Below, piece after piece: positions 4,995 to 23,199 of a stretch of 32,000 nt of DNA. Position numbers and translations under genes: made by a program. Below the pieces are notes generated by a model, which was not told the origin of the DNA, made no database searches, and saw only the letters and a program-made list of their open reading frames with translations. Origin of the DNA: an uncultured bacterium (lineage in GTDB: Bacteria; Margulisbacteria; WOR-1; CAVSGV01); assembly GCA_963699255.1 (NCBI GenBank), contig OY969425.1, forward strand, positions 900,001-932,000. The letters run 5' to 3'. Every line of letters begins with the position of its first letter. Positions within the stretch are counted from its first letter, which is position 1.

Positions 4995-6287
4995 CTACTT
5001 TCTCTCCACTTTAAGGATCAGCTCCAATTTCTTCTTCAATTCTTTCGCTCCTTGATGTTCCGGATCGATGGAAAGGACCAAATTAACTTCCTCCAAAGCC
5101 TTGTCATATTGTCTGGCTGAAACATACTTCATGGCTCCTTCAATATGGTCCTTCATTTCACTTTTCTTATCTGTCACAGAAACCACGGTCACCGCCGCTT
5201 CTTTTCCCTTTAGCTTGGCAAGAGCTTCTCCCCGCGCCTGGATTTCCAGTTCAAGCTGGGACTGTTGCAACAGAAGCTGCGCCTCGGCATTATCAGGATC
5301 GATGTCCAGAGCCCTTCCGAATCTTATTATAGCTTTGGAATATTCTTTTTCATTAAGCGATGTTTTCCCGTCGGCTATTTCCTCTGCGATCATTGCCCTT
5401 CTTTGCTCAGGCGCCCCAAAGAGAAGGCTAATGCTGAATTGATGAGCTGCCCCCAGATCATCGCTCGCAATATACGCGTAATCAAATTCAAAAAGCCCGA
5501 CAAGAAGCCCGAACCCGACACTGGGAAAAGTCCCGTTGTATCCGGCCCTTAGAGCGAGCATGCCTTTGATCCAGTATTCAGCCCCGCCGCAGAACTTTGT
5601 CCCGTCGACATCAGAAACGGCATCGGCCGCAAAATTGACCCTGTCATTTAACACCAAGGCCCTATAGAAAACTCCGGCCCTATAAGATGTTGGAAGCGGC
5701 GTATTCTCTGAAACATACTTTAAACCCGAGCCCACATTCAAAACTGACAATCCAAAAGCCAGATCCGGATCCAGTTGATAGCAGACGCCCGCGTCAAAAG
5801 CTACGGTACTGGCTGTGTATGAGTCCAGCTTATCCGAAATAAGCTTTGTCCCGATCCCCAGGCTTAGGTTTTGGTCAAACTTTCTCGCAAACACAAGTGA
5901 AAAACTGGATGAATTCGTGTCAAAGTCGGACGTATAAGCGCCGCTGTTGTCATACCCTTCAATATTACCCGACATAAGGGTGGAATAGCCGCAGCCCACT
6001 ACCCCGTAATCCGTAGGTATCGCAAAGCTGCCAAGATACTGGGTCATTTCGGCAAAGTGCTGGTTCTGCATCACCATCGCCTCAGGAAAGGTCAAGCGCG
6101 CGAGTCCGGCGGGATTAAAAAATACTGCCGAAGAATCGCCGGGCTGTGCCGAGTATGCCCCTCCCATGGCAAGCGGCCTGGCTCCGCCGAAAAGGTTCAG
6201 GAAGTCGCCGCCGTAACTGCCGCCGGCCGCCGCGAAAGCGGGCACTGTCAATAAGAATACCATTAAAGCGCAAAGCATCGCCTTCAT
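4995..6287 (-). CDS. PorV/PorQ-like outer-membrane beta-barrel protein with a 140-aa C-terminal TPR/coiled-coil extension
   Basis: 430 aa. It has a signal peptide (MKAMLCALMVFLLTVPAFA/AAG). The mature N-terminus GGARPLAMGGAYSAQPGDSSAVFFNPAGLARL carries the motif I associate with PorV/PorQ-family barrels. Amphipathic strand patterns run up to ..AHQFSISLLF. Two TPR-like units follow (..ALDIDPDNAEAQ.., ..LVLSIDPEHQGAKE..). The ATG overlaps the stop of the upstream giant gene (ATGA). Confidence 0.55.
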   Translation of the reverse strand: MKAMLCALMVFLLTVPAFAAAGGSYGGDFLNLFGGARPLAMGGAYSAQPGDSSAVFFNPAGLARLTFPEAMVMQNQHFAEMTQYLGSFAIPTDYGVVGCGYSTLMSGNIEGYDNSGAYTSDFDTNSSSFSLVFARKFDQNLSLGIGTKLISDKLDSYTASTVAFDAGVCYQLDPDLAFGLSVLNVGSGLKYVSENTPLPTSYRAGVFYRALVLNDRVNFAADAVSDVDGTKFCGGAEYWIKGMLALRAGYNGTFPSVGFGLLVGLFEFDYAYIASDDLGAAHQFSISLLFGAPEQRRAMIAEEIADGKTSLNEKEYSKAIIRFGRALDIDPDNAEAQLLLQQSQLELEIQARGEALAKLKGKEAAVTVVSVTDKKSEMKDHIEGAMKYVSARQYDKALEEVNLVLSIDPEHQGAKELKKKLELILKVERK

Positions 6288-9200
6288 CTTATAACTACCA
6301 GCTTGCCGGTCTTCGTATCATTGGAGCTCCTGATAACATATAAATATATGCCGCTCCTTAATTGTTCGTTGGAATCGTTCTCGACGTTCCAGACGTTCTG
6401 GCCGTCGCCGTCGTTTTCCTGGATGGTCTTGACCAGCTGGCCCGATACTGTGAATATCTTGATCGTGCATGACGTAGCCAGGTTCGTAAATGTGATGGTA
6501 GTGTGCCCTTCAGAAGGAACGAAAGGATTAGGATAAGGATGTGCATTGGATAGACTGGGACTCGGCAGGGACATGAGCACGTAAGTGGAAAAGTGTGGGA
6601 CAGCTGCCGCAAAACATTTTTGGCCTGATATGAGCGAGCTATCCGAAACCTTTACCCATGACGAGTCGGATTCATCCAGCCAGTAAATACTCACATTATG
6701 TATGCTCACAGGCGGCGATGTCCCGTCAATTATACCGTCGTCATTATTATCGGTATATGGGAGGTATATGGTCACCTTTTTCAGGAAATTATTCGTGATC
6801 ATGGCGCCGGTATTATCATAAGCTGCAAATTCGCGGTATGTCCCCGCTATAGGATGGAATGAAGGATTCCCCTGGGATGTGATCTTCGCGTTGGCCGCGA
6901 TGATCTTGGCGGGGTTTACCGCAATGGGAGAGCTCTGCGGATCGATACTGAACTGAACAGAATAGCTCCCGCTTACGGCTCCCGAAGGGAATGCAGCCCT
7001 GGTCTTGCCGTCGCTGGCGGTAAATACATTTGCGGTCCCGCTGTCAGCAATGACCCTGAAATCCCATGACAGCGCGGCTTGAAGAGGATTGCCAGAAGCA
7101 TCACAGGCCTCCGTGGAAATATTCGCCCTGTAAGTATAACCTTTTGTTAAAGGCACTGAAGGAGTGAATACGACCCTGTTACCGATCCAGCTATAGCTGC
7201 CTATTATAGGGATATTAATTGAATTTCCGCTGCTGTCCAAAATGGCTTTTAAGGTAAAGGCGTTTTGAACGGAGCCCGTATCCATAGCGGTGGAAAACTC
7301 AGCGGATACGGTCGCCTCCGGTGTTACGTTCGCGGCTTCGCCTGTCGGCGAGAAAAATGTTATCTGAGGACCTGTCATCGATCCTGTAACATCAAAGGAA
7401 GCTGATACCGCGGTAGATAGTCCGTTAGATCGCGCCTGGAGGGTATAGCCGGTCCCGGCCCTGTTGATCATCACACTTTCAAAGGTCGCGATCCCGCCGG
7501 CAACGATCTTCGTTTTTGTCCCGGTCAGGACCCCTCCCCCCGGATTGTTCTGGATCTCAACGGTGACCATGGAGGTGTTGTTATTTGTGACCGTATTGCC
7601 GTACTGATCCCTGAGCGCGATACGGGGAGCCGGAAATAAGCTGACCCCGGCGGCAGAATCAGCAGGCTGAACCTCAAAAGTGATGTTGCTTGCAGCCGCA
7701 TTCGTGATACTGAAAGCGCTTGAAGCGGCTGACGTTAAACCTTCTGCCGTAACACTTAAAGTATATCCAACTCCAGATTTGTCGATGCTTAAGTTCTCAA
7801 ATGTGGCCACCCCGCCTGAAACCTGTTCCGTCAATGTTCCTGATAATGTCCCGCCGCTGGGGTTACTTTGTATCTCAATGGTCACAACGCTCGTGTTGTC
7901 GGTCGTGACAGGATTTCCGTATTGATCAAGGGTCCTTGCCTCCACTGACGGGGCGATATTTGTGCCTGCGGCAGCGCTCGACGGCTGAACAACGAACCCG
8001 AGCTGACTTGAAGAGGCCGGTGTAATATTAAATGCGCTGGAAGTAACAGGCGTAAGGCCTGATGACGTTGCCTGCAGCGTGTACCCTGTCCCGGACTTGT
8101 CGATGCTTAAGTTCTCAAATGTGGCCACCCCGCCTGAAACTTGTTCCGTCAAGGTGCCCGATAATGTACCGCCACCGGGATTGTTTTGTATCTCAATGGT
8201 GACAACGCTCGTGTTATCAGTTGTAGGATTCCCATATTGATCAAGTGTCTTTACCTCAATTGACGGAGCAATGCTTATTCCCGCGACAGCACTCGATGGC
8301 TGAACAATATAGCCAAGCTGACTTGAAGATGAAGATGTTATGTTAAATGTGCTGGAAGTTGACGATGTTAAACCTTGCGCCTTGACCCTTAAAGTATATC
8401 CAACTCCAGCTTTATCGATGCTTATGCTCTCAAATGTGGCAATACCGCCGGAAACCACTTTAGTCAATGTCCCTGACAATGTCCCCCCGCCAGGGTTGCT
8501 CAGTATCTCAATAGTTACAACGCTCGTGTTGTCAGTCGTGACAGGATTCCCGTATTGATCCAGGGTCTTTACCTCAACTGACGGGGCGATATATATCCCC
8601 GCAACTGCGCTCGTCGGCTGAACAATGTAGCCAAGCTGGCTTGATGATGCTGATATAATATCAAATGCGCTTGATTCAGTCGAAGTTAAGCCTGATGACT
8701 TTGCCTGCAAAGTGTACCCTGTCCCGGACTTGTCGATGCTTAGATTCTCAAATGTGGCCACGCCGCCGGAAACCTGTTTCGTAAAGGTGCCTGATAATGT
8801 CCCGCCGCCGGCGTTATTTTTTATCTCAGCAGTAACAACAGAGGTATTGTCAGTTGTGACCAGATTCCCGTATTGATCAAGGGTCTTTACTTCCACTGAC
8901 GGGGCGATACTTATTCCTGCGACAGCGCTCGAAGGCTGAACAATATAGCCAAGCTGACTTGAAGATGCTGGTGTAATATTAAATGTGTTTGAAGTAGCTG
9001 ATGTTAAGCCAGATGACGTTGCCTGCAGAGTGTACCCTGTCCCGGATTTGTCGATGCTTAGATTCTCAAATGTGGCCACGCCGCCGGAAACCTGTTTCGT
9101 AAAGGTGCCTGATAATGTCCCGCCGCCGGGGTTATTTTGAATGGCAACAGTTATATATGTGGAATTATCGGTCGAGTCAATATTGCTGTTCTGATCCTGG

Positions 9201-11116
9201 ACCGTAACTTCCACAGTTATCGGAGAACCCGCGGAAGTGCCAACAGGCTGGGTCTTCCAGCCCAATTTCGTTGAAGTGCTCTTCCAGGCCGCGTATCGGT
9301 AAACGACAGTATTTGCATTAACCGTCGCATTTGTTCCGACCTGGAATCCATTCACCTCAAGCGCTTGTACGGCATCAGCTAAATTCGCGGTCGCGGTAAA
9401 ATACTGGGTATTATCCCCTAAAAGGCTGGCCGGCCTAAGCACGGCCCCGCTGGTGACTTCCGGCCGCTTTACCCAAACGAGCCCGGGCCTGAAACCAACG
9501 CCGGTAATGGACCTGTTATCAGATCCGTTCCCGGTATAGGTGGAAGTTGAAAATTGATTACCGGTGTTCTTAAAAGCGAAGTAAAAATAAGTCGTTGCCG
9601 CCGTATTAACGACTGCGTTCGTTCCCACCTGGAATCCGCTCGCCTCCAAAGCCTGGACCGCATCAGCGATGTCAGCAGTAGCCGAAAAGTAGGCGGTGGC
9701 ATCACCGGCGATCGATGAGGTACGGAACACTCCAAAGGTCGCCCCGGTGCTTTTTACCGCCACAAGATCGGGCTGAAAGGAAAGGCAGGGCATAGAACGA
9801 TCGTCTCCGCCAGTTCCGGTGTATGCCCCGACGGCAAAGTTTGTGGAATTCGTTGTCCCTTTGAACGCCATCCAGCGGTAAGTAGTCGCTCCGGTATTGA
9901 CCGCTGCATTCGCTCCAACCGAAAATCCGTCATTATCAAGGGAGGTTACGCCATCGGCGAAACTGGCGGTTGCAACGCCCATATATGCGGTGGAATTAGG
10001 CGCCATTAACGATGTGGTGAATACTGCCGAACCGCCGGCTGTATCCGCCTTAACAATGACAAGGTCTGGCTTAAATCCCACTCCGGTGATCGACTGACTT
10101 GATCCATTGCCGGCATAGGAGCCGCTGAGCATTTTAAATGTTCCGGAAAGTGCCGGAGAAGGAACGCCCCTAAAAGCAGCATAGTAATAAGTGCTTGCTG
10201 CCAAATTCACACGGCCGTTCGTCCCTACCTGGAACCCGTCGCTTTCCAGGGTTTGAACATGGTCGGTCGCATTAGCTGCGGCAGTGAATATCTGGCTCTC
10301 GTCGCCGTAGCTCTGGTTGCTTCGCAAGGCGGCAGCATTGGTCACCGCCGACTGTTTAACGAACATAAAATCGGGCTTGAACCCGACCCCCGTTATGTCG
10401 CGGTTATCCGTTCCGTCCCCGACATAACTCCCAACGGCCATGCTGCCCGCGACCGATTTAAACGCGACATAATAATATGTGCTTGCCGCAGCATTGGTCT
10501 CTGCGTTTGATCCGACCTGGAATCCGTCAGACTGAAGAGCCTGGATCATGTTCGGGATCGGAGCGGTGGCGGAAAAATAGTGGCTATTGTCCCCGCCCAT
10601 TGAAGATGAATTCCACACCCCTAATGAGGCGCCGTCTCTTTTTACCCACACCAGGTTCGGCTGAAAACCTATACCGATGATATTCCTGTCATCGGCCCCG
10701 TTACCTGTATATGATCCGACCTTAAAATCCGCTCCCCCGCTGCCGTAAAAAGCGATCCATGTATATCGCACGTTCGCTGAATTGACGTTTGCGTTCGTTC
10801 CCAGTGAGAACCCGTCTGAATTAAGAGAGGTAATTAAACCTGTATCGTTCGGAACGGCATTCTCAAAATAAGCGGTGGAATCCCCCATCATGGCCGAGCT
10901 TTTCCAAACAGCCCTGCCGGCCGCCGTATCCGATTTAATGATCACCAGATCAGGCTGAAAACCTACCCCGGTGATCGAGCGGGAAAATCCCGTGCCAACA
11001 TAATAGCCTGTTTGAATGGAAAATGCGTAAGCGGAAGTCCCAATAAATAATATTGAGAGGAAAATGATGAAAAAAGCAATGCAAAATAACCTTCTCAGTG
11101 AACCCCCCCTCCTCAT
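6284..11116 (-). CDS. giant repeat-built surface protein (1610 aa) with T9SS-type C-terminal sorting domain
   Basis: The signal peptide is MRRGGSLRRLFCIAFFIIFLSILFIGTSAYA/F. It is followed by 6 copies of a ~97-aa unclassified repeat and 6 copies of a 105-106-aa Ig-like repeat. Next come an SbsA/Big_5-like Ig domain (ITFFSPTGEAANV...DASGNPL..SWDFRV) and a further beta-rich region. The protein ends in a CTD. Confidence 0.85.
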   Translation of the reverse strand: MRRGGSLRRLFCIAFFIIFLSILFIGTSAYAFSIQTGYYVGTGFSRSITGVGFQPDLVIIKSDTAAGRAVWKSSAMMGDSTAYFENAVPNDTGLITSLNSDGFSLGTNANVNSANVRYTWIAFYGSGGADFKVGSYTGNGADDRNIIGIGFQPNLVWVKRDGASLGVWNSSSMGGDNSHYFSATAPIPNMIQALQSDGFQVGSNAETNAAASTYYYVAFKSVAGSMAVGSYVGDGTDNRDITGVGFKPDFMFVKQSAVTNAAALRSNQSYGDESQIFTAAANATDHVQTLESDGFQVGTNGRVNLAASTYYYAAFRGVPSPALSGTFKMLSGSYAGNGSSQSITGVGFKPDLVIVKADTAGGSAVFTTSLMAPNSTAYMGVATASFADGVTSLDNDGFSVGANAAVNTGATTYRWMAFKGTTNSTNFAVGAYTGTGGDDRSMPCLSFQPDLVAVKSTGATFGVFRTSSIAGDATAYFSATADIADAVQALEASGFQVGTNAVVNTAATTYFYFAFKNTGNQFSTSTYTGNGSDNRSITGVGFRPGLVWVKRPEVTSGAVLRPASLLGDNTQYFTATANLADAVQALEVNGFQVGTNATVNANTVVYRYAAWKSTSTKLGWKTQPVGTSAGSPITVEVTVQDQNSNIDSTDNSTYITVAIQNNPGGGTLSGTFTKQVSGGVATFENLSIDKSGTGYTLQATSSGLTSATSNTFNITPASSSQLGYIVQPSSAVAGISIAPSVEVKTLDQYGNLVTTDNTSVVTAEIKNNAGGGTLSGTFTKQVSGGVATFENLSIDKSGTGYTLQAKSSGLTSTESSAFDIISASSSQLGYIVQPTSAVAGIYIAPSVEVKTLDQYGNPVTTDNTSVVTIEILSNPGGGTLSGTLTKVVSGGIATFESISIDKAGVGYTLRVKAQGLTSSTSSTFNITSSSSSQLGYIVQPSSAVAGISIAPSIEVKTLDQYGNPTTDNTSVVTIEIQNNPGGGTLSGTLTEQVSGGVATFENLSIDKSGTGYTLQATSSGLTPVTSSAFNITPASSSQLGFVVQPSSAAAGTNIAPSVEARTLDQYGNPVTTDNTSVVTIEIQSNPSGGTLSGTLTEQVSGGVATFENLSIDKSGVGYTLSVTAEGLTSAASSAFSITNAAASNITFEVQPADSAAGVSLFPAPRIALRDQYGNTVTNNNTSMVTVEIQNNPGGGVLTGTKTKIVAGGIATFESVMINRAGTGYTLQARSNGLSTAVSASFDVTGSMTGPQITFFSPTGEAANVTPEATVSAEFSTAMDTGSVQNAFTLKAILDSSGNSINIPIIGSYSWIGNRVVFTPSVPLTKGYTYRANISTEACDASGNPLQAALSWDFRVIADSGTANVFTASDGKTRAAFPSGAVSGSYSVQFSIDPQSSPIAVNPAKIIAANAKITSQGNPSFHPIAGTYREFAAYDNTGAMITNNFLKKVTIYLPYTDNNDDGIIDGTSPPVSIHNVSIYWLDESDSSWVKVSDSSLISGQKCFAAAVPHFSTYVLMSLPSPSLSNAHPYPNPFVPSEGHTTITFTNLATSCTIKIFTVSGQLVKTIQENDGDGQNVWNVENDSNEQLRSGIYLYVIRSSNDTKTGKLVVIR
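6287..6544 (-). other. T9SS type-A-like C-terminal sorting domain (CTD) of the 1610-aa protein
   Basis: The last ~85 aa read AHPYPNPFVPSEGHTTITFTNLATSCTIKIFTVSGQLVKTIQ..VWNVENDSNEQLRSGIYLYVIRSSNDTKTGKLVVIR. This matches the pattern of the Por secretion tail (YPNPF, T.I.F, I.IF...G.LV, SG.Y, K..K.V.I). Confidence 0.65.
7385..9265 (-). repeat. six tandem Ig-like coding repeats, period 315-318 nt
   Basis: These are residues 618-1244 of the 1610-aa protein. The unit is LGYIVQPSSAVAGISIAPSVEVKTLDQYGN.VTTDNTSVVT.EI.NNPGGGTLSGT.TKQVSGGVATFENLSIDKSGTGYTLQA.SSGLTS..S.AF.IT. Exact DNA identity occurs at a 318-nt offset: the 42-mer at 7781-7822 equals 8099-8140, and the 80-mer at 8732-8811 equals 9050-9129. 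Confidence 0.9.
9266..11023 (-). repeat. six tandem copies of an unclassified ~95-101-aa coding repeat
   Basis: These are residues 32-617. The recurrent pattern is F.VGSYTGNG.DNR.ITGVGF.PDLV.VK...(8-10)..S..GD...YF.A.A...D.VQALE.DGFQVGTNA.VN....TYYY.AF. Confidence 0.85.
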
Positions 11117-11398: not shown

Positions 11399-11453
11399 TG
11401 GGGAGTAGCCCCGATTTCATCGGGGCGTTGAGGGGCGAAGCCCCTAAATGAAC
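11399..11453. repeat. 55-nt double-hairpin repeat, copy 1
   Basis: The sequence is TGGGGAGTAGCCCCGATTTCATCGGGGCGTTGAGGGGCGAAGCCCCTAAATGAAC. It forms two stem-loops: GCCCCGA/TCGGGGC with a TTTCA loop, and AGGGGC/GCCCCT with a GAA loop. Confidence 0.8.
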
Positions 11454-11489: not shown

Positions 11490-11544
11490 TGGGGAGTAGC
11501 CCCGATTTCAACGGGGCGTTGAGGGGTGAAACCCCTCAAAGAAC
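11490..11544. repeat. 55-nt double-hairpin repeat, copy 2
   Basis: It lies 91 nt from copy 1 and is identical at 50/55 positions. Two of the five differences (C>T and G>A) are compensatory in the second stem, giving GAGGGGT gaa ACCCCTC. Confidence 0.8.
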
Positions 11545-11567
11545 GTCAGTCACAGCCGCCGTAGTAT

Positions 11568-11641
<74 letters not shown>

Positions 11642-11684
11642 TTTCTCTTTTTTCCTGCTCCTGCGAGGATAATCACTGATCCCC

Positions 11685-12734
11685 TTAACCAACCTTCTGG
11701 TCTATTATTTCGCTCGGTGCACCCGCGGTGCACCCAACCTGTAAAACACTTACCGCTTTCTTGAGATTCTCCATCCTTATGTGAGCATATACCTGAGTTG
11801 TCTGGACTGAGGCATGCCCTAGAAGATTTTGAACCTCATAGATCGGTACTCCTCTTTGAACCAAGAGGCTTGCGAACGTATGCCTTAACTTATGCAGATG
11901 CCCTTTTATGCTTAATCTGTCCAAGAGCTTCTTGAATCGGTGATAATAATCGCTAACGGGCATTCCTTCATTGTATTCAAAGACATATACCTGTTTATCG
12001 CTTTTGCGCAGATACAGCGAAAACATGTGCTGAAACAACGTTTCATTCATCGGTATTGTCCTGAACCTGTGTGACTTCGATATTTCGATATTGATAACCT
12101 TGTTCTTGAAGTCCACATCAGCCCATTTAAGCCGTTTTATCTCACTGGCCCTAAATCCGGTATTCAAAAGGACTATCACATAATCCCTGATGAACGGCTC
12201 CGCTGCCGCTAATATCTTTTCAATTTCTTCTTCGGTGAACCATTCTGGCCGCCTTTTGTCCACCTTAAGCTTTGTTATCTTCGGGATATTAGCCAGATAC
12301 TGCCTTTCTACGGCAAACCTGAGCATCGTGCCCAGCAGAATGGAGTGGTTATTTACAGTCTTGTTACTCTTGCCTTCTTTGCTCCACTTTGACTGGGCCT
12401 CTTGAATCCTGAGTGTCGTTATTTGGATCAGCTTTAACGCCCCGAATTCCTTCAATAATGCCTTTATGACAGAGCCATCCTTCTCGTATGTTGAGCTCAT
12501 TTTCCTGGAGACTGAGTAATCCCCATACTCTTTAGTCAGTTTATAAAAACTGACCTCTTTCATATATAGGGATACCGGCTTACCGGATACAAGCTCACCC
12601 TCATACATCCGCAAATATTCTCTTGCCTCTCTCAAAGTCCTAGCGGGAATCTTCCGCGAGTTTTGTCTCCCACATGTCTTATCGATAATGTGGAAAGTAA
12701 TCCCCTTGCCGGTGCGTCTCCTTCTAATAAACAT
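11685..12734 (-). CDS. int: tyrosine recombinase / phage-type integrase
   Basis: 349 aa. The catalytic signature is present: TGFRASE (Arg), HKLRHTFAS (His-x-x-Arg) and LLGHASVQTTQVYAHI (His, Tyr). It lies adjacent to the tRNA 3' end. The start overlaps the upstream stop (TAATG) and is preceded by a strong SD, AAGGAAGGAG. Confidence 0.9.
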   Translation of the reverse strand: MFIRRRRTGKGITFHIIDKTCGRQNSRKIPARTLREAREYLRMYEGELVSGKPVSLYMKEVSFYKLTKEYGDYSVSRKMSSTYEKDGSVIKALLKEFGALKLIQITTLRIQEAQSKWSKEGKSNKTVNNHSILLGTMLRFAVERQYLANIPKITKLKVDKRRPEWFTEEEIEKILAAAEPFIRDYVIVLLNTGFRASEIKRLKWADVDFKNKVINIEISKSHRFRTIPMNETLFQHMFSLYLRKSDKQVYVFEYNEGMPVSDYYHRFKKLLDRLSIKGHLHKLRHTFASLLVQRGVPIYEVQNLLGHASVQTTQVYAHIRMENLKKAVSVLQVGCTAGAPSEIIDQKVG

Positions 12735-12964
12735 TATTCACTCCTTCCTTGAGGAGACTGCCCGGACAAATTATCCATGAATTTGTTTACTTCTTCAACC
12801 CTAAACCGAACGGATCGTCTGTTCTTTATCTTCGCATTAGAGGATTTAACGGAAGGCAAGTAGATAGGCGTTAAAATACCTTTTTCCGCATAGGCATAGA
12901 CCGTGCTTTTGCCAATGCTAAGCATTTCGACTATATCTTTTACGGTTAGTAATAGCTTTTTCAT
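12734..12964 (-). CDS. small helix-turn-helix DNA-binding protein, excisionase/AlpA-like
   Basis: 76 aa. LTVKDIVEMLSIGKSTVYAYAEKGILTP is a typical excisionase-family HTH. It lies directly upstream of the integrase and is translationally coupled to it. Confidence 0.7.
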   Translation of the reverse strand: MKKLLLTVKDIVEMLSIGKSTVYAYAEKGILTPIYLPSVKSSNAKIKNRRSVRFRVEEVNKFMDNLSGQSPQGRSE

Positions 12965-13048: not shown

Positions 13049-13636
13049 TTAGGGGTTTACACTTCTGAATTCTTCTCTTTTTCTTTTTTCCCTAAGTTTT
13101 TGCATAAGCTTGCGACTTTTCCCTCTTTTTTCTTCCTTGTGTTTAATAAAATATTGATTATCATCATACCTTTTTTTACATGAAGCACCTCGCATGTATC
13201 GATTACAAAAAATCGCATCTTTTTCCCATAGGAATAAACTGCCACAGTATTTGCATTTACACGCGAGATGTTTCTTTTCAAGTACTTCGACTAATTGTTT
13301 ACACATCTGATATATATCGTAATTCCCCCACTCAAGTTTTGTCATGAGACTTTCGCCCTTTTTTATTCTTTCTAAATCTTTACTGGTAGAATAATAGTGG
13401 CACAAAGTATTAAGATCATCAGAGATGGTATTGAACAATGCAAACCCTTTATCAATGTCCCGTTTAACAAAAGTCAATCTTGCAACATTAGTTAGTATTC
13501 TTTTTGTTTCATCGGGATCTTGGAAGATCATTGAAGGAGGGAGTTTTTTATAAGTTATTCTGGTTTCAACCTTGAATTTACGTCTAAATCTCTTATATAC
13601 CTTCTTAAAGATAGCCTCATTATTTTTTATGCTCAT
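13049..13636 (-). CDS. hypothetical protein with Cys-cluster (putative zinc finger) and highly basic C-terminal tail
   Basis: 195 aa. The Cys cluster is C-K-C-KY-C ...(12)... C ...(8)... C (ACKCKYCGSLFLWEKDAIFCNRYMRGASCKKRY). The tail is KHKEEKRGKSRKLMQKLREKRKREE. I recognise no family. Confidence 0.55.
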   Translation of the reverse strand: MSIKNNEAIFKKVYKRFRRKFKVETRITYKKLPPSMIFQDPDETKRILTNVARLTFVKRDIDKGFALFNTISDDLNTLCHYYSTSKDLERIKKGESLMTKLEWGNYDIYQMCKQLVEVLEKKHLACKCKYCGSLFLWEKDAIFCNRYMRGASCKKRYDDNQYFIKHKEEKRGKSRKLMQKLREKRKREEFRSVNP

Positions 13637-13819: not shown

Positions 13820-15115
13820 TTATGCCCAGCATTTAAACGCTTCCTGTATTTTCTTTTCCACTTCCTTGCAGAATCTATCTTGATCATCCATGTCAACGGC
13901 TTCATTTTTGTTCCATTTATAGGACATAACGATTCCGGGACAAAGGTTTAAATTCGGATACCCCTTTTCCCCAATTATAGTGCTAAATTTTAATTTATCG
14001 CTGACAGCCATTATCTTTTTGCTTAATAGTAGTTTTAAGCATTTGCCCCAGTCTTCTTTTTTTACCTGATTCAGCTTGCCACTCTTCACTTTCTCCTTCC
14101 AGTAAATAAGATATTCTTCTGTTGGCATTTCTGTATTCGCCCATAAAAGGCCTGATGATCTGTATGCAAAGTGAAAGTTGGGGATGATTTTCCATTTCTT
14201 TTTAGCCAACTTCAGCAGGTCGTTTGTTTTGACGTTAGAGTAAAAATGTCTTGCTTGGTTCATAACATCTCCGGGTGTTAAAGACAGTTCTATGCTCCAA
14301 TCGGTATTATCAGAACCTTTTCTCTGGAAAAGCGTTATCTCTTTTATTTCCGGCCTGTTAACTTTTATCGAATAATGCCACCCTCTATGCCAGGAAACAT
14401 TGCCTAATTGCAATAACTCCATTATACTTTTTAATCGTTTTTCTATTAAGTATTCATCATCCTTGCACATGCTCAGTTTATCGAACGGATTTAAAAATGA
14501 CCAATGTGTGTCAACATATAGAAGGAATTGTTCGATCAGTTTTTTTTCGATAAACGAGATCATGCTGTTGCCCATAATGTCGTTAAGCCCTTTAATTATG
14601 TTCTTCCATAACAAAATAACAGGTTTTTCTTCGTGTTCCAAGCCTTCAGGGAATTTAAAGCTCAACTGATCGAACCATACATCTGTATGTCTAGGTTTAT
14701 TCTCAATGGTCAGAATATACCCATCATCCGTTTCTATTAGCCCATCCAGTACGCCTTTTCTCTCGGAAGATGCAATCTTATTTTCGTTGTAATCTATTTG
14801 TTCATCGGTAATAAGTATCGCGATTAACCGGCCCTCATAATCATCGACCCTGCTTGTATTGATCTGAGTCCTAATCTCCTTAAACGTATTGCTGCCTTCT
14901 ATGCTTGAGGAGGGGATAAATTCATCATCAACCTTTTTCTGTTTCAGTTCGTTTTTTATGTAATTTATGAATAGAATCTGAGCAAATACCGAATAATCCA
15001 ACAAAGTGAGAAAAGCGTGCGTGAGCTGATCTTCATAATGGTTCTCTTTTCTAATGTATTTCGTAAAAATATTCAACTTATCCACTATTTTGCTCCCTCT
15101 TTGTAAAAGATCCAA
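13820..15115 (-). CDS. hypothetical protein with putative N-terminal PD-(D/E)XK nuclease-like core
   Basis: 431 aa from the TTG at 15115. A GTG at 15085 has the better SD (AGAGGGAG, 7-nt spacing). The motif arrangement is HYEDQLTHAF (acidic helix) ... GVLDGLIETDDGYILTIENKP, which gives D124-x13-E138-x-K140 (nt ~14696-14746). The C-terminal ~270 aa are unassigned. Confidence 0.6.
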   Translation of the reverse strand: MDLLQRGSKIVDKLNIFTKYIRKENHYEDQLTHAFLTLLDYSVFAQILFINYIKNELKQKKVDDEFIPSSSIEGSNTFKEIRTQINTSRVDDYEGRLIAILITDEQIDYNENKIASSERKGVLDGLIETDDGYILTIENKPRHTDVWFDQLSFKFPEGLEHEEKPVILLWKNIIKGLNDIMGNSMISFIEKKLIEQFLLYVDTHWSFLNPFDKLSMCKDDEYLIEKRLKSIMELLQLGNVSWHRGWHYSIKVNRPEIKEITLFQRKGSDNTDWSIELSLTPGDVMNQARHFYSNVKTNDLLKLAKKKWKIIPNFHFAYRSSGLLWANTEMPTEEYLIYWKEKVKSGKLNQVKKEDWGKCLKLLLSKKIMAVSDKLKFSTIIGEKGYPNLNLCPGIVMSYKWNKNEAVDMDDQDRFCKEVEKKIQEAFKCWA

Positions 15116-15147
15116 CTGACCTTAACGCATCTTTGATCCATTATGAA

Positions 15148-15846
15148 TTAGCTAAACTCCAAGGTAAGCCCTTCGCCATATTCTTTTGGCTTGATTTGAT
15201 TTTTAAAGTCTGTTGTTTTTTCAATTGTACTTATATCTTCAATTGAGCCTATCAATAATTCAAAGGGCTTGTTGCCACTATCCGCAGTACGAACAACTAA
15301 TCTCCATTCCTTTTGATGCGCAAACTTTATAGTTTTCTTAAATGGGCCTATTTCGCCATCATAAGATTTTTCATCATAATAAGTTACTAGCCCGTATCCA
15401 AATCCTTCTATGATTCCCTCATTTTGCAGTTTTATTAAAGAATCTTTCAAACGTTTAAAAAATTCTTTTACGTCCCGAATAACAATAAAACTGTCTCCAA
15501 AATCCTTAACCTTATCATCAAATATTTTCCAATCTTCTCGTACAGCTTCCCCTCTCATTATTACGCATGCGCTGAATATTTTGTTCTTAATATTGTCATC
15601 GGGAAATTCAATCGACCCGCCTAAAAAACCACCTTCGGGAGAAAATGTATGGCCATCTATCGTTACTTCGGTTTCCTTTGGTTGAATTAAATAATGCAAT
15701 CCTTCGTTTTCATCTTTTCTTTCTGTGTGATCTTCACAGTTTTTAAAATATGACCACGGATTCAAATATAATTTACCCTGCTGCAACTCTCGTAAATATT
15801 CCCCTTTACTAAACTTTACTATAAGCCATGCTATTTGTTGTTCCAT
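15148..15846 (-). CDS. hypothetical protein (232 aa from ATG 15846; ORF opens at TTG 15861)
   Basis: A clean ORF with SD AAGGAA 5 nt before the ATG at 15846. Motif order is KFSKGEYLRELQQGKLYLNPWSYF..ED..RKDENEGL ... IFSACVIM ... FGDSFIVIRD ... GLVTYYDE ... FAHQKEWRLVV. This is loosely reminiscent of DUF2971-type proteins, from memory only. It lies 33 nt upstream of the next gene. Confidence 0.6.
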   Translation of the reverse strand: MEQQIAWLIVKFSKGEYLRELQQGKLYLNPWSYFKNCEDHTERKDENEGLHYLIQPKETEVTIDGHTFSPEGGFLGGSIEFPDDNIKNKIFSACVIMRGEAVREDWKIFDDKVKDFGDSFIVIRDVKEFFKRLKDSLIKLQNEGIIEGFGYGLVTYYDEKSYDGEIGPFKKTIKFAHQKEWRLVVRTADSGNKPFELLIGSIEDISTIEKTTDFKNQIKPKEYGEGLTLEFS

Positions 15847-15957
15847 ATGTATTCCTTGCAAAACTAGACTCCTGGATAATCGCTATATGTCGAATAATCA
15901 ACGGTAAGCTCTTCGCCTTTTTTAATATCTCTTTGACCTTACCCCATTCTTAGTGCC

Positions 15958-15986
15958 ATTATGAATTAGAGTAAACGATATTACAA
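15958..15986 (-). promoter_or_regulatory. candidate sigma70-type promoter of the two-gene cassette
   Basis: The minus strand reads TTGTAA (15986..15981), a 17-nt spacer, then CATAAT (15963..15958). This is ~110 nt upstream of the ATG at 15846. The -10 lies inside a ~36-nt sequence duplicated at 15116-15151. Confidence 0.3.
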
Positions 15987-16158
15987 TACTTGCCCCTATT
16001 GTGAATCTAATGTGGATTTTATTATATAAGCCGTGTTAAGGTGGCTCAACAAATGAGGGCTAGATCTTGTCACGTTGCTGGAACCGGACATTATCACGTG
16101 GCTACTACACCTTCCCCCCTTCATTGACACCTCTTTTTGCGTATGGGATAATAAAAAT

Positions 16159-17409
16159 ATGGAGAAAATGGAAAAAAGAAGAGTAGTAATTACAGGTCTG
16201 GGGGTTATCGCTCCAAACGGAGTTGGCATTAAGTCGTTTTATGAGGGGAATCTAAATGGCATTTCTTCTGCTTCAGCAATAACCAGTTTCGATGTCTCTA
16301 ATCATGCTGTCAAATTCGCTGCTCAGGTAAAAGATTTTATTCCCGATAAGTTTATTCCAAAACAACAAATTAGCCGAATGGATCGCTTTGCTCAATTCGG
16401 AGTAGCCGCGTCAAAAATGGCAATTGAAGATAGTGGTTTAAATCTTCCGCAAGAAAATTCTGAACGCATTGGAATTGTTATGGGCACTGGACTGGGAGGC
16501 ATTTTATTTCATGAAGAAGAAATAATGAGGATGCTAACAAGACATAAAATGGAGGCCCACCCATTTTCGGTGCCTAAGGTATCTCCAAATTCAATTTCAA
16601 GCTGGATAGCATTGACCTTTAAAATCACTGGGCCGAACATATCAATAACTACCGCTTGCTCTTCTTCCGCAAATGCAATTGGTCATGCTATGGATATGAT
16701 AAGATTAAATCGGGCAGACCTTATTATTGCTGGCGGCGCCGAAGCCCCCCTAACACCTTTTACTTTTGGTGCATTTTCTTCTATTGGTGTAATGTCTACA
16801 AGGAATAATGCTCCTGAACAAGCTAGCCGCCCATTTGATAAAAATCGGGATGGTTTTGTAATGGGAGAAGGTTCCGCTGTTATCATTTTGGAAGAATTAG
16901 ATCATGCGAAAAAACGAGGAGCAAAAATCTATGCGGAAATTGTCGGATACGGGCAAGCGACAGGAACATATCATATGGTTATTCCTCAACCGGACGCAAA
17001 AGATGTTATGCGAACCATGCAACTTGCTTTAGAAGATGCGAATTTATCCCCGGATAAAATCGATTACATAAATGCGCATGGGACATCCACACAGGCCAAT
17101 GATAAAATTGAAACAATGGCTATAAAACTCGTTTATGGTGAAAGAGCTTATAAAATACCTGTAAGCTCAACCAAGTCAATGATCGGCCATCTTATAGGAG
17201 CTTCGGGAGCAGTTGAATTAGTTGCTTCAATTTTATCATTAAATAATAATGTAATTTTCCCAACTATTAATTATGAAACCCCTGACCCTGAATGCGACCT
17301 TGATTATGTGCCGAATAAATCAAGAGCAGGTAAACTTAATGCGATAATGTCTAATTCATTTGGATTTGGCGGCAATAATGCCTCATTAATTATTAGGAAG
17401 TTTGCGTAA
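16159..17409 (+). CDS. beta-ketoacyl-ACP synthase, KAS I/II (FabF/FabB-like, Cys-His-His)
   Basis: The N-terminus RRVVITGLGVIAPNG is typical. The active-site Cys is in ITTACSSSANAIG and the two His are in INAHGTSTQAND and KSMIGHLIGASG. The C-terminus is SNSFGFGGNNASLII. The ORF opens at 16075, but homology starts at the ATG at 16159 (or 16168). Confidence 0.88.
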   Translation: MEKMEKRRVVITGLGVIAPNGVGIKSFYEGNLNGISSASAITSFDVSNHAVKFAAQVKDFIPDKFIPKQQISRMDRFAQFGVAASKMAIEDSGLNLPQENSERIGIVMGTGLGGILFHEEEIMRMLTRHKMEAHPFSVPKVSPNSISSWIALTFKITGPNISITTACSSSANAIGHAMDMIRLNRADLIIAGGAEAPLTPFTFGAFSSIGVMSTRNNAPEQASRPFDKNRDGFVMGEGSAVIILEELDHAKKRGAKIYAEIVGYGQATGTYHMVIPQPDAKDVMRTMQLALEDANLSPDKIDYINAHGTSTQANDKIETMAIKLVYGERAYKIPVSSTKSMIGHLIGASGAVELVASILSLNNNVIFPTINYETPDPECDLDYVPNKSRAGKLNAIMSNSFGFGGNNASLIIRKFA

Positions 17410-17427
17410 ATTAATAGGAGGTGCGAT

Positions 17428-17667
17428 ATGAGCAATACTGAAGAAATGGTAAAAGCCGCTCTCGCAGAAAGCCTCGGAATCGATGCCTCAAAAATCAGAA
17501 ATGATTCTACCTTGGTCAATGATCTGGGAATGGATTCCTTTGGGTTTGTTGAACTGGGGTTTGCGCTGGAAAGTAAATTGGGCATCAAGATCGACCAGGA
17601 TCAAATGCAAACCATAAAAAGTGTTTCAGATATAATTTCATTTATTAATAAGAAAGAAAGGGAGTGA
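17428..17667 (+). CDS. acyl carrier protein
   Basis: 79 aa. The phosphopantetheine-attachment motif is LGMDSFGFVEL. A strong SD, TAGGAGGTG, precedes the start. Confidence 0.85.
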   Translation: MSNTEEMVKAALAESLGIDASKIRNDSTLVNDLGMDSFGFVELGFALESKLGIKIDQDQMQTIKSVSDIISFINKKERE

Positions 17668-17672
17668 CTATA

Positions 17673-18089
17673 ATGGCTAAAGAATTTATTTTTGAAACAA
17701 AGGTGTTTTTAGGCGATACGAATATTTATGGCACTGCTTATTTTGCAAGATATTTCGAATGGCAAGGTATGGCGAGAGAATCTTTGTTTATTACATTGAT
17801 CCCTGATTATGCGAAGTTTAACAGTAAATATAGAATGATCACCATTGAGGCTTCTGTTAATTATAAATCCGAAGCGAATATCTTTGATGATATTTTAATA
17901 AGAATTGAAGTCGCGAATATCAAACTAACCACATATGAGTTACATTTTTCATATTTTAACAAGAAATCTAATAATTTGATTGCCGTCGGAAAACAAAAGA
18001 TTGGATTCACTGACCTTTCCGGGAAAGTTGTAACAATACCCGTGGATTTAATAAAAGCATGGATGGCATATTCACCCAAGAAAGAATAG
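17673..18089 (+). CDS. hotdog-fold acyl-CoA/acyl-ACP thioesterase (4HBT/YbgC-like)
   Basis: ~138 aa. The N-terminal signature VFLGDTNIYGTAYFARYFEWQGMARESLF carries the catalytic Asp and the helix of 4HBT-type thioesterases. The ORF opens at the GTG at 17664, overlapping the ACP stop. The ATG at 17673 has SD AAGGGAG at 8 nt. Confidence 0.75.
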   Translation: MAKEFIFETKVFLGDTNIYGTAYFARYFEWQGMARESLFITLIPDYAKFNSKYRMITIEASVNYKSEANIFDDILIRIEVANIKLTTYELHFSYFNKKSNNLIAVGKQKIGFTDLSGKVVTIPVDLIKAWMAYSPKKE

Positions 18090-18101
18090 TATATTTATAA
18101 T

Positions 18102-20231
18102 ATGAATATTTATTCGCTCCCTCCTCTAATAGTTGCAATATGCGCAATATTATTGGGACTATTGATACTGTCAAATAATAGAAAGTCTTCGGCAAACCTC
18201 TCTTTTTCCCTTCTTTGTTTAACCACTTTCGTTTGGCAGTTTTCTTGGTTTGTGTTGTTTAACATTGCCGATCGTGACATCGCATCTATCATTGTCAAAA
18301 TTGGATATTCCGGGATTATATTTATTCCAATTACGTTTTACCAGTTTTCAGAAAGATTTACAAATATAAAATTTGCTCGCTACATTTCATACGTATCTTA
18401 TCTGATAGGCCTTGTTTTTCTATATTTTTTGTGGGCAACAACACATTTTATTGATGGATATTATAAATACTTTTGGGGATACTATCCCAAAGCAGGCTTC
18501 TTGCACCCTCTTTACTTAGTGCTGTTGTTTACTTTGTGTTTCCTCTGTTGGGTTTTATTTATATTACAGCTTAATATTAAGCCGAACAATCCTATAAAAA
18601 ACACACAAGTTAGATATCTTATATGGGCATTAATAATTTATGTTCCCGCCGCAACTGATTTTATAGTGAATTATGGAATTGAATTTTATCCTTTTGGATA
18701 TATTTCTGTCATTTTATCCTTAGGTATCATAGCTTACGCAATAGTACGCCATCGCCTCATGGATATACAATTCATCATTAAAAAAGGTATTGTTTACTCC
18801 GCACTGGTTGCCGTTATTATAGGCCTATATTCCGCGCTTCTTCTAGTAATACAGCAAGTGTTCCAGTCAACGATTGGGGTCAATCAATGGCTTGCTACGG
18901 TCATTACGGCAATTTGCATCGCCGCCGGTTTCAGGCCCCTCGAAATTGTTTTCACGAACTTTACCGACAAAGTATTCTTTAAGGCCAAATACAACTACCA
19001 AAGGACACTTGCGGAGCTATCAAAGGGTATGGCGGAACTGACAAACCTGGACAGGCTGACAACGCTTGTCGCCAAAATAGTAGTCCGGAACATGAAACTC
19101 GAGGGATCCATGCTGTTCGTATATGATTATCGGAGCAATAATTTCAACATCGTATCAGCTCAGGGCAATATGAAGGGATTTAGAGGACTGTTGCTTCCCA
19201 AAGACGACCCGCTTATTAAGCGGCTTGATCAGACCGAAGATGTGATAATCAAGGAAGAATTTGTCCGTGAACTTGAGAACAAACAACTTATTAGCTCAGT
19301 CAGGAACGAGATCAAGGATATCATAAAACAGATGACGGATTTCAAAGCCGTTCTCTGCGTCCCCAGCAAGATAAAAGGCAAATTGATAGGTTTTATCATG
19401 CTCTCTGATAAAAAATCACAAGATGCGTATTCCACCGAAGATCTGATGCTATTCGCGACGCTTGCACCTCAGGCGGCCGTAGCCATTAAGAACGCCATGA
19501 CCTACGACGAGATAAGAAAGGAGCTTGAAAAAGAACATGGAAAAGTAGAGGCAATTGAAAAACAACTGGAAAGAAGCGAGCGATTGGCGTCTCTGGGAAC
19601 GCTTGTGGCAGGAGTCGCTCACGAGATAAGAAATCCCATGCAAGCTTTAAGGCTAAAAGCGGAAGGAATACTTGAAAAAGCGGATGATCCCGGCTATGTG
19701 AAAGAAGCGGGCGACTCTGTCATAAAAAATGCCGACAGAATCCTCACGATAACGAAGGAAATGCTGGAAATGTCAAAAATAAAGGAGCCCGAAAAGAAAC
19801 CCGTTAATTTAATCGAGATCATCGAAAATGTCCTTAAGCTCATGCCGGTTAAGGCTGATATCAAATTGATCAAAGACCTGAATCCCGTCCTTTCCGTGAA
19901 TGGAAACGCAGTCCAGCTTTCACAAGTTGTGATAAACCTCGCGCAGAACGCGATAAAAGCAATGCCGAACGGCGGAACTCTGACGATAAAAACCTTTCAG
20001 GAGGATAATTTTGCGGGTTTTGAAGTGGCCGACACGGGGATTGGTATTCCGAAAGAAAACCTCGAAAAGATATTTGATCCGTTCTTTACCACTTACGCAG
20101 AGAACACGGGACTTGGGCTTTCAATATCCAACAAGATAATAACCGACCATGGTGGAATGATGAAGGTGAAAAGCGAAGCCGGAAAAGGATCCGTGTTTTC
20201 TGTTATTCTTCCTTCCGCGCAGATTCTTTAA
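18102..20231 (+). CDS. sensor histidine kinase: multi-pass (about 7-8 TM) N-terminal sensor + GAF + HisKA + HATPase_c
   Basis: 709 aa. Residues 1-~290 are serial hydrophobic helices. The GAF-like region is ..LEGSMLFVYDYRSNNF...VLCVPSKIKGKLIGFIMLSDKK... The H-box is VAHEIRNPM, the N-box NLAQNAIKAM, G1 DTGIGIP and G2 GLGLSIS. It starts 12 nt after the thioesterase stop. Confidence 0.9.
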   Translation: MNIYSLPPLIVAICAILLGLLILSNNRKSSANLSFSLLCLTTFVWQFSWFVLFNIADRDIASIIVKIGYSGIIFIPITFYQFSERFTNIKFARYISYVSYLIGLVFLYFLWATTHFIDGYYKYFWGYYPKAGFLHPLYLVLLFTLCFLCWVLFILQLNIKPNNPIKNTQVRYLIWALIIYVPAATDFIVNYGIEFYPFGYISVILSLGIIAYAIVRHRLMDIQFIIKKGIVYSALVAVIIGLYSALLLVIQQVFQSTIGVNQWLATVITAICIAAGFRPLEIVFTNFTDKVFFKAKYNYQRTLAELSKGMAELTNLDRLTTLVAKIVVRNMKLEGSMLFVYDYRSNNFNIVSAQGNMKGFRGLLLPKDDPLIKRLDQTEDVIIKEEFVRELENKQLISSVRNEIKDIIKQMTDFKAVLCVPSKIKGKLIGFIMLSDKKSQDAYSTEDLMLFATLAPQAAVAIKNAMTYDEIRKELEKEHGKVEAIEKQLERSERLASLGTLVAGVAHEIRNPMQALRLKAEGILEKADDPGYVKEAGDSVIKNADRILTITKEMLEMSKIKEPEKKPVNLIEIIENVLKLMPVKADIKLIKDLNPVLSVNGNAVQLSQVVINLAQNAIKAMPNGGTLTIKTFQEDNFAGFEVADTGIGIPKENLEKIFDPFFTTYAENTGLGLSISNKIITDHGGMMKVKSEAGKGSVFSVILPSAQIL

Positions 20232-22197: not shown

Positions 22198-23199
22198 TTA
22201 CCATTTTCCAGTTAGACTAACTCTGTGCACATTATCTTTCGTTAAACTGGTTTGAGTTACATATGCGTAATCTATACTGATGTGGTCTGCTTCAAAACCA
22301 GCTCCTCCGGTCATCGCCTGTTCGCTGTACCCAACCCTGAAAGCGATCTGTCCGAATTTAGCTTCGGCTCCGGCACTTCCTTCAGGAACATAACCGGCTT
22401 TATTGATTTGGCTGACATCACCCGATAATATCATCGGGTTCCCAATTATCGGAACTCGAGTACCAAATGCTAATCCAAGTCTATACTTCGACGGGACTAT
22501 TTCTTCCGTGTCCGTTCCCCACTTCTGATAATTGATCAGTTCATCAATTTTGAAACCTATTGAGAGATTATTTGTCGGTTTATAAAGTAGTCCCGGCGTA
22601 ACTGAATACCCATAGGCGCTGGCTCCTTCGATTGATACCAACCCTGGCATGTCTGATGTTAAATATTTGGCGGTTATGCCAAAGCTTAGATTGTCTGTAA
22701 TATTTCTTCCATAAGCGAGCAGGTACGCATTGGAGAAGTAGCTAAATATGCCGAGATTGACAACCTCGTTATATTCGCTCGTAGAAGAGCCGGTTTGGGA
22801 AACCGAACTCATCCCCACCTGTATCCAACTTATACCTAACCCTCCGCCAAAGAGCGGAGTAACATAGCTTACATAATAATGGTCGGCATTAGTGGATAAC
22901 TTTGTCTGCATAGCCGTTATTTCATTATTGTTTATTTGTGCTAGTCCCGCGGGGTTCCAGAATGGGGCATCAGCGTTATCCGCCACGGCAGTAAAAGCAC
23001 CGCCCATTCCCAAAGCTCTGGCTCCAACACCGGCTTCGAGAACGGCAATATCCAGACCAGCCTGCCCTGTTACTGCGTAACACGGGATTTCCAATGTCCA
23101 ATTCCAAATGACAAATAAAATCCCAATGACCAATATCCAAATTGGAAATTGGGATTGGGTCATTAATTTGACATTTGACATTGGAAATTTGTCATTCAT
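22198..23199 (-). CDS. PorV/PorQ-like outer-membrane beta-barrel protein (paralog of 4995..6287, no TPR tail)
   Basis: 333 aa. The motif VGARALGMGGAFTAVADNADAPFWNPAGLAQI parallels the first barrel. Amphipathic strands run to the C-terminal aromatic ..HRVSLTGKW. The ATG overlaps the stop of the upstream giant gene (ATGA). The hydrophobic leader FPIWILVIGILFVIWNW..PCYA/VTG is encoded by a low-complexity repeat. Confidence 0.55.
   Translation of the reverse strand: MNDKFPMSNVKLMTQSQFPIWILVIGILFVIWNWTLEIPCYAVTGQAGLDIAVLEAGVGARALGMGGAFTAVADNADAPFWNPAGLAQINNNEITAMQTKLSTNADHYYVSYVTPLFGGGLGISWIQVGMSSVSQTGSSTSEYNEVVNLGIFSYFSNAYLLAYGRNITDNLSFGITAKYLTSDMPGLVSIEGASAYGYSVTPGLLYKPTNNLSIGFKIDELINYQKWGTDTEEIVPSKYRLGLAFGTRVPIIGNPMILSGDVSQINKAGYVPEGSAGAEAKFGQIAFRVGYSEQAMTGGAGFEADHISIDYAYVTQTSLTKDNVHRVSLTGKW
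23100..23195. repeat. low-complexity CCAAT/ATTGG-rich imperfect palindrome
   Basis: The sequence is aattccaaatgacaaataaaatcccaatgaccaatatccaaattggaaattgggattgggtcattaatttgacatttgacattggaaatttgtc. The arms AATGACCAATATCCAAATT and GGAAATTGGGATTGGGTCATT are imperfectly complementary around ~23141. It shares a 21/24 match with 11352-11375 in inverted orientation. Confidence 0.35.

Follow-up and report, generated by a model that had tools for sequence, protein, structure and literature searches.

Do two adjacent genes beside an integrase form one defence system, or are they separate genes that share a location? The question is raised by a 32,000-nt stretch of DNA from an uncultured bacterium (GTDB lineage Bacteria; Margulisbacteria; WOR-1; CAVSGV01), found at positions 900,001 to 932,000 of the forward strand of contig OY969425.1 (GenBank assembly GCA_963699255.1). 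We call this whole stretch the window, and all coordinates below are window positions unless another locus is named. A first-pass annotation had read two co-directional genes in the window, here called A and B, as a two-gene candidate defence module in which a PD-(D/E)XK-like protein is joined by a partner of 237 aa. We found a conserved family for each gene, but the A+B pair itself was seen only in this window. The best explanation, to which we give a little better than an even chance, is that A and B are single-gene defence candidates independent of each other, both of them cargo of an integrase-linked island beside a tRNA-Met gene. A defence role is plausible for each of them, because both families recur next to restriction–modification (R-M), abortive-infection (Abi) and integrase genes; the defence part of the earlier claim is kept in this form, and the two-component part is not.

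Both open reading frames (ORFs) are where they had been placed, on the minus strand at 13820–15115 (A) and 15148–15861 (B), with B upstream of A. They are real genes, because homologs are found at E = 3e-121 (A) and E = 1e-101 (B); in public sources these proteins are only ‘hypothetical proteins’, and no other name was found. The open frame of A reaches back to a TTG at 15115, which gives 431 aa, and its probable start is a GTG at 15085, which gives 421 aa (13820–15085, the publicly annotated form P0001): a GAGGGAG ribosome-binding site is located 8 nt upstream of this GTG, and homologs of A begin at the equivalent of residue 11, matching the GTG start. The open frame of B likewise reaches a TTG at 15861 (237 aa), and the probable start is an ATG at 15846 (232 aa, 15148–15846, the annotated form P0007), the point at which its homologs begin. 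The true products are likely to be of 421 aa (A) and 232 aa (B). Residue numbers below are those of the 431-aa frame for A (subtract 10 for the 421-aa form) and of the 237-aa frame for B (subtract 5 for the 232-aa form). The gap between the two genes, previously given as 33 nt, measures 32 nt with the TTG start of A and 62 nt with the GTG start.

The arrangement could be that of one obligate two-component defence or abortive-infection system, e.g. with B as a sensor or modifier and A as the nuclease effector. The genes are co-directional and 32–62 nt apart, both are low in G+C (34.5% for A and 36.7% for B), and no terminator-like site was found in the 62-nt gap. The first-pass annotation had named a lack of co-occurrence elsewhere as grounds for refuting its reading, and on this test the system failed in all 38 A loci, all 14 B loci and all 11 plasmids. 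A B-family profile had no match in the six-frame ORFs of 38 A-homolog loci, about 30 of which have at least 1 kb of sequence upstream of A; an A-family profile had no match in 14 B-homolog loci; and tblastn of A had no match anywhere in the plasmid collection, in which B homologs are present on 11 plasmids (alignment A4, with 43 sequences, was left out of the locus searches as too divergent). The closest homologs of each protein also lack the partner gene where their flanks are readable: no B remnant is present in the ∼200–240 nt that can be read upstream of the closest A homologs (47% and 41% identity), and next after the closest B homolog (66% identity) comes a convergent gene instead of A. 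Furthermore, the two family sizes are more than 100-fold apart (20 clusters for A, 3269 representatives for B), three type I R-M operons have an A homolog embedded in them and no other gene, and in the window a separate copy of a 14-nt element precedes each gene. Because A and B were never found together elsewhere, the likeliest reading is that each is a module of one gene and not half of a joint system, and we consider a single obligate system very unlikely.

The 14-nt element is an exact direct repeat, CTAATTCATAATGG, which brackets B on the minus strand. One copy (15138–15151) overlaps the stop codon of B and is 53–66 nt upstream of the GTG of A; the other copy (15956–15969) is ∼110 nt upstream of the ATG of B. 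Two copies are present in the 32-kb window against 0.02 expected by chance, and in its extended form the repeat is identical at 19 of 22 positions. The copy upstream of B contains the CATAAT ‘-10’ of a candidate promoter (15958–15986) that had been credited to the cassette as its own. This candidate matches the consensus at only nine of 12 positions, and promoter-like sites are barely enriched in the region (18 sites, against 11.6 ± 3.7 in shuffled sequences). The CTAATTCATAATGG repeat could be a promoter or operator copy for each gene, or it could be the footprint left when B inserted between A and the sequence upstream of A. Either origin is consistent with independent modules.

What kind of protein is A? 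Its family is small, with 20 clusters retrieved by profile search among 5.8 billion proteins, and broadly distributed: 33 loci with A homologs were found among 185 579 species (one genome per species), and the hosts belong to Bacteroidota, Bacillota, Verrucomicrobiota, Acidobacteriota, Nitrospirota and several candidate phyla. In one A-homolog locus, from a Bacteroidetes metagenome-assembled genome (L038, 10001–11232 of that locus), a frameshift splits the homolog into two overlapping ORFs, i.e. it is a pseudogene or a sequencing error. Protein A has no match at E ≤ 1 in Pfam, NCBIfam, PADLOC or PHROG; the 20 family members have no match in PADLOC v2 (including its PDC set), and no ATPase or other Pfam domain was found in them (DUF3839, the sole family to recur, appears below threshold only). 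The PADLOC-type scans that the first-pass annotation had proposed thus gave no defence-database model for A, nor did they for B. As for DUF3839, which falls on the motif region of A, we set it aside as uninformative: the match is sub-threshold, and the domain is itself an uncharacterized one of fungal mitochondrial intron ORFs.

An acidic helix (HYEDQ) followed by D-x13-E-x-K had been noticed in A, and conservation among the homologs bears this out. The motif D124-x13-E138-x-K140 can be read from the sequence of A, in a hydrophobic strand context. Across the 34 distinct homologs, which reach as low as 23% identity, eight residues never vary: E28, T32, R119, D124, E138, K140, Q150 and W170. D29, D104, N139, P141 and W147 are near-invariant (N139, P141 and W147 in 33 out of 34 homologs). 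The motif core (D124, G125, E138-N-K140-P, W147 and Q150) is encoded at 14666–14746 on the minus strand, and residues 101–150 hold 13 of the 25 invariant columns of the 20-member family alignment. The authentic HsdR nuclease motif in A-homolog loci has the same D-x13-E-x-K spacing.

The AlphaFold2 model of A has a predicted local distance difference test score (pLDDT) of 86.9 and a predicted template modelling score of 0.83. Its N-terminal domain (residues 28–205; 14501–15034, minus strand), a putative nuclease domain of PD-(D/E)XK type, consists of a helix (28–59), four strands (78–86, 96–103, 122–129 and 133–139), a short helix (148–151), a strand (166–169) and a helix (170–181). D124 opens one strand of a hairpin, and E138 and K140 close the next strand. 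As modelled, the order of these elements is compatible with PD-(D/E)XK, and the arrangement is as would be expected for a site of the type E ... D ... ExK ... Q. Fold and profile comparisons gave nothing significant: the best Foldseek match in the PDB has E = 0.12, the best match of the A profile among PDB sequences has E = 1.2 (AcrIIC2), and hhalign against the N-terminal nuclease domain of HsdR gives a probability of 0.15%. The PD-(D/E)XK core that had been claimed for A is thus retained as a conserved motif with a compatible order of elements, and not as a recognized fold. We infer, with good motivation, that A is probably a nuclease.

The rest of A forms an alpha/beta domain (residues 206–431; 13823–14500, minus strand), which is also modelled with high confidence. 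These C-terminal ∼230 aa have no Pfam or PDB match and no recognizable family or fold in a Foldseek search of the PDB; their conserved residues are C217, W246 and N390-x-C392-P393. AcrIIC2 can be set against A in two collinear segments, MSKNNIFNKY and DNNKPKNMEDWLGQL vs ENKP..VW..QL (residues 11–20 and ∼130–156 of A; ∼14650–15085 of the window). This resemblance is not significant (E = 1.2; hhalign probability of 8.4% over 40 columns).

The genomic contexts of A homologs point to R-M systems. The order hsdM-hsdS-A-hsdR is found in nine loci (L010, L011, L019, L027, L028, L029, L032, L036 and L039), and in these loci the A homolog is separated from hsdR by 6–10 nt. L011 duplicates L010 and L032 nearly duplicates L027, which leaves about seven distinct loci out of the nine. 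In L027, L032 and L036 the A homolog is the only gene inserted into the type I R-M operon. Among 107 ORFs flanking A homologs, Pfam assigns six to Methylase_S, five to HsdR domains, two each to N6_Mtase, PDDEXK_4 and AAA_21, and one each to SfiI, N6_N4_Mtase and RelE; most A homologs have no adjacent integrase. That a gene is embedded in a defence system has been validated as a sign that it acts in defence itself; over half of such genes are unassigned (bioRxiv 10.1101/2024.01.29.577857). For example, PrrC sits in the hsdS-hsdR slot of EcoprrI (PMC12707154), and TgvAB is embedded within a type I R-M operon on VPI-2 of V. cholerae (PMC11411939).

Two further observations concern these loci. L010 (296–9911 of that locus) and L011 are composite mobile defence loci, with hsdM, hsdS, two small ORFs, a PLD/NgoFVII-type nuclease gene, the A homolog (3-nt gap) and hsdR; a VapE-like primase gene heads the locus in L010 only. 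Five metagenomic contigs (L001–L004 and L018) end 15–240 nt upstream of the A homolog. Repetitive hsdS sequence was considered as the cause of these breaks and dismissed, as the upstream sequence that remains is non-coding and has no hsdS or B remnant.

Could A be a guardian of R-M systems in the manner of PrrC, held inactive by the type I R-M complex and released by a phage anti-restriction protein? PrrC itself provides the precedent (PMC12707154), A homologs are found exactly in its slot, and the distance of 6–10 nt to hsdR suggests translational coupling. But no type I R-M genes adjoin the window copy, nor the A homolog in about two-thirds of the informative loci (the immediate neighbours of A in the window are B, a ketoacyl synthase gene and a 195-aa ORF, so that this copy is outside the hsdS-hsdR slot), A has neither an ABC-ATPase nor an anticodon-nuclease domain, and the embedded cases are from Bacteroidota only. 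We consider the guardian reading of A quite improbable.

Family B is of another order of size. A word-indexed search retrieved only seven clusters, and an exhaustive profile search retrieved 3269 representatives at 50% identity (1726 of them at E ≤ 1e-10); the B relatives listed are nearly all stand-alone proteins of 190–260 aa. The conserved-looking blocks that had been picked out in the 237-aa protein are real. Y161, K176 and E185 do not vary across 150 family representatives, at least 90% of them keep Q183 and R187, and G29, D50 and E53 are nearly invariant; the conserved core (Y161, K176 and Q183-x-E185-x-R187) is encoded at 15301–15381 on the minus strand. The likeness to DUF2971 (PF11185), which the first-pass annotation had suggested, is also real, but it stays below threshold: B scores 16 bits against a gathering cutoff of 22 (E = 0.032), with the match running to the C-terminal E-W-R block. 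DUF2971 is the sole recurrent Pfam family (three out of seven, eight out of 43 and 17 out of 150 B-family members), and every other family appears once. The 17 matches among the 150 relatives are at E < 0.1, the best of them at 5.4e-4, and the gathering score is never reached. In PHROG, B matches phrog_26561 (E = 7e-23); the B profile has no match among PDB sequences, and tblastn of B has none in the phage collection.

DUF2971 is a predicted ADP-ribosyltransferase (ART) family related to DarT, AbiGi and Tox-ART-HYD1, with a strictly conserved tyrosine (motif II) and a glutamate motif III (ExE) (PMC12522546), and Aristaios is a single-gene abortive-infection system with DUF2971 (PMC11381338). 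Y161 and E185 of B may correspond to these ART motifs, and B is putatively ADP-ribosyltransferase-like. The surroundings of B homologs vary: one homolog is beside AbiJ-NTD4 and an integrase, one beside a PstI-type R-M pair and an AAA ATPase, and one beside Fic and a D12 methylase. B relatives are found in IMG/VR viral contigs as well. In L005–L008, L045–L054 and four plasmids the neighbours are variable and unrelated, i.e. B occurs as a single gene.

An ART-like gene immediately upstream of a second gene recalls darT-darG, and with DUF2971 reported to be related to DarT (PMC12522546), B and A could be read as a DarTG-like toxin–antitoxin pair in which B is the ART toxin and A the antidote. Such a pair would be hard to reconcile with protein A, which has no macrodomain or other ADP-ribose hydrolase signature, and with the distribution of B, whose homologs stand alone nearly everywhere and are never paired with A elsewhere. 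We regard it as extremely improbable.

A broader alternative is that A and B are not defence genes at all, and serve the mobile element (in replication, recombination or addiction) or are unrelated accessory cargo. They adjoin the integrase and excisionase-type genes and the 195-aa ORF, they match no defence-database model, and B has relatives in phage-derived families and in viral contigs, with one homolog (in L005) set among housekeeping genes. A homologs, on the other hand, mostly have no integrase next to them and lie within or beside sets of R-M genes, and tblastn of A found no match in 50 697 phage records or 72 556 plasmid records, which argues against a core mobile-element function. 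A non-defence role for the two genes therefore seems unlikely to us.

Several points weigh against the preferred reading of A and B as two independent defence genes, and they should be set against the evidence above. For B, the structure model has a pLDDT of only 60.8 with residues 41–90 disordered, a Foldseek search of this model against PDB and BFVD has no ART among its matches, the DUF2971 score is below the gathering threshold with a motif that reads Q-x-E and not E-x-E, and the assignment of DUF2971 to the ARTs is itself a prediction; the homolog among housekeeping genes in L005 belongs here too. For A, the embedded loci that can be assigned are all from Bacteroidota and have homologous hsdR genes (59–62% identity), and the embedding may represent one or few independent events. 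For the two together, the 62 nt between them contain no terminator-like site, and co-transcription and a lineage-specific functional link are possible.

Taken as two separate modules, the genes would work as follows. The region would be the cargo end of a small island next to tRNA-Met, with an integrase and an excisionase-type gene, in which A and B are side by side and probably co-transcribed and would not depend on each other. A would be a stand-alone effector: its N-terminal domain has a predicted metal-dependent nuclease site of PD-(D/E)XK type, and its C-terminal domain of ∼230 aa may sense or bind the target. The A family would most likely be a restriction-like or abortive nuclease that complements R-M, because relatives of A directly precede hsdR within type I R-M operons. 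B, whose large family of stand-alone proteins of ∼220 aa is distantly sister to DUF2971, would be an ART-like protein that stops infection through an NAD+-based modification of a host or phage target, as the literature on DUF2971 and Aristaios suggests.

One may go further with A, though we hold the following proposal to be doubtful. A would be the founder of an uncatalogued group of single-protein defence nucleases, with an E-D-ExK-Q site and a C-terminal sensor of new fold; in Bacteroidota it would act as a PrrC-like back-up effector within type I R-M systems, using a DNA nuclease where PrrC has an anticodon nuclease, and elsewhere, including the window, it would act alone. More speculative still is that AcrIIC2 might be a degenerate descendant of the nuclease domain of A, given the shared ‘NIFNKY’ and ‘NKP..W..QL’.

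The surroundings of the two genes agree with the tRNA-linked integrase and excisionase element that had been noted beside them. A tRNA-Met gene (anticodon CAT; 11567–11642, plus strand), predicted by ARAGORN, is the probable integration site of the island. Next to it, on the minus strand, are a tyrosine integrase gene (11685–12734, 349 aa; Pfam Phage_integrase, E = 8.7e-36, and Phage_int_SAM_3) and a gene for a small DNA-binding protein of the AlpA/excisionase type (12734–12964, 76 aa; Pfam HTH_17, E = 1.7e-9). A search for an attR copy of the 3′ end of the tRNA gene, which would mark the right border of the island, found none (up to three mismatches in 22 nt; no shared 10-mers). A and B had also been described as being in the most AT-rich part of the window. 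There is indeed a line with a G+C count of 15 out of 60 (14401–14460), but the cassette as a whole has 35.9% G+C against 34.9% at 16.75–18.8 kb (2-kb stretches compared). To the right of the cassette, on the opposite strand, the genes at 16075–20231 encode a ketoacyl synthase, an acyl carrier protein, a 4HBT thioesterase and a histidine-kinase-like protein of 709 aa; their G+C (32–41%) is as low as that of the cassette, so the low-G+C region extends well past A and B.

Between the excisionase-type gene and A, the ORF list has a 195-aa ORF (13049–13636, minus strand), which is Cys-rich and Lys/Arg-rich and has sub-threshold family matches only. Its G+C is 32.7%, and it has a promoter-like site of its own (13728–13700, 10 out of 12 positions with a TG extension). 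Among the weak matches is one to Tox-ART-HYD1 (E = 0.022); it falls on a basic tail of low complexity and is probably spurious. On the other side of the tRNA-Met gene, two G+C-rich copies of 54 nt (11400–11453 and 11491–11544; 91% identical, 91 nt apart) lie between it and a gene of 1610 aa; they form apparent hairpins and resemble repetitive extragenic palindromic (REP) or terminator elements. That gene (6284–11116) is one of two very large minus-strand ORFs in the window, and it has many near-identical repeats of ∼90 aa; the other ORF encodes 2924 aa (23196–31970).

If the reading of two independent defence genes is confirmed, family A would be a rare defence gene without family assignment that joins the R-M-embedded set, and its C-terminal 230 aa (with no Foldseek relative in the PDB) might serve for sensing in a new way. 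The ART-like abortive-infection proteins of the Aristaios/DUF2971 class would gain family B as a large sister group, whose more than 3000 clusters at 50% identity are missed by current domain models. Of the two, family A holds more interest, because no database that was searched lists it and its C-terminal domain has no match. There is also a general lesson: that genes are neighbours in an integrase-linked hotspot should not be taken as evidence for a multi-gene system, and here a co-occurrence test split one cassette into two modules.

How do A and B compare with known systems? On the best reading both belong to kinds that are already known: A to the R-M-embedded defence genes and the PD-(D/E)XK-like proteins, B to the DUF2971-like proteins. 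With the PD-(D/E)XK superfamily, A shares the invariant residues E28, D124, E138-x-K140 and Q150 in the RecB/Cas4-style order (E ... D ... ExK ... Q); it differs in having no significant sequence, profile or Foldseek match to the superfamily, in the conserved N139 and P141 of its motif region and in its unique C-terminal domain of 230 aa. With the R-M-embedded modules (PrrC, TgvAB and the PDC candidates that came out of the embedding survey cited above, Payne et al. 2024), A homologs share the hsdS-hsdR slot and the tight operon packing, and many R-M-embedded genes, like the A family, also occur outside R-M operons. The differences are specific to each system: A has no ABC ATPase or anticodon nuclease as in PrrC, it has no DUF262 or DUF1524 as in TgvAB and GmrSD, and it matches no PDC model of PADLOC v2, the window copy being outside any R-M system as judged by its immediate neighbours. 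DarTG and the A+B arrangement are alike in that ART-type chemistry is possible and another gene follows directly; they differ in that the second gene in the window is not a macrodomain partner and the pairing is not conserved. B comes closest to Aristaios and the DUF2971 proteins. It is shorter than Aristaios (232 aa vs 316 aa), with a sub-threshold DUF2971 score and Q-x-E in place of E-x-E, but it shares with them the stand-alone form, it has an invariant tyrosine and an invariant glutamate that may answer to their motifs, and its relatives are found on mobile elements and in defence contexts.

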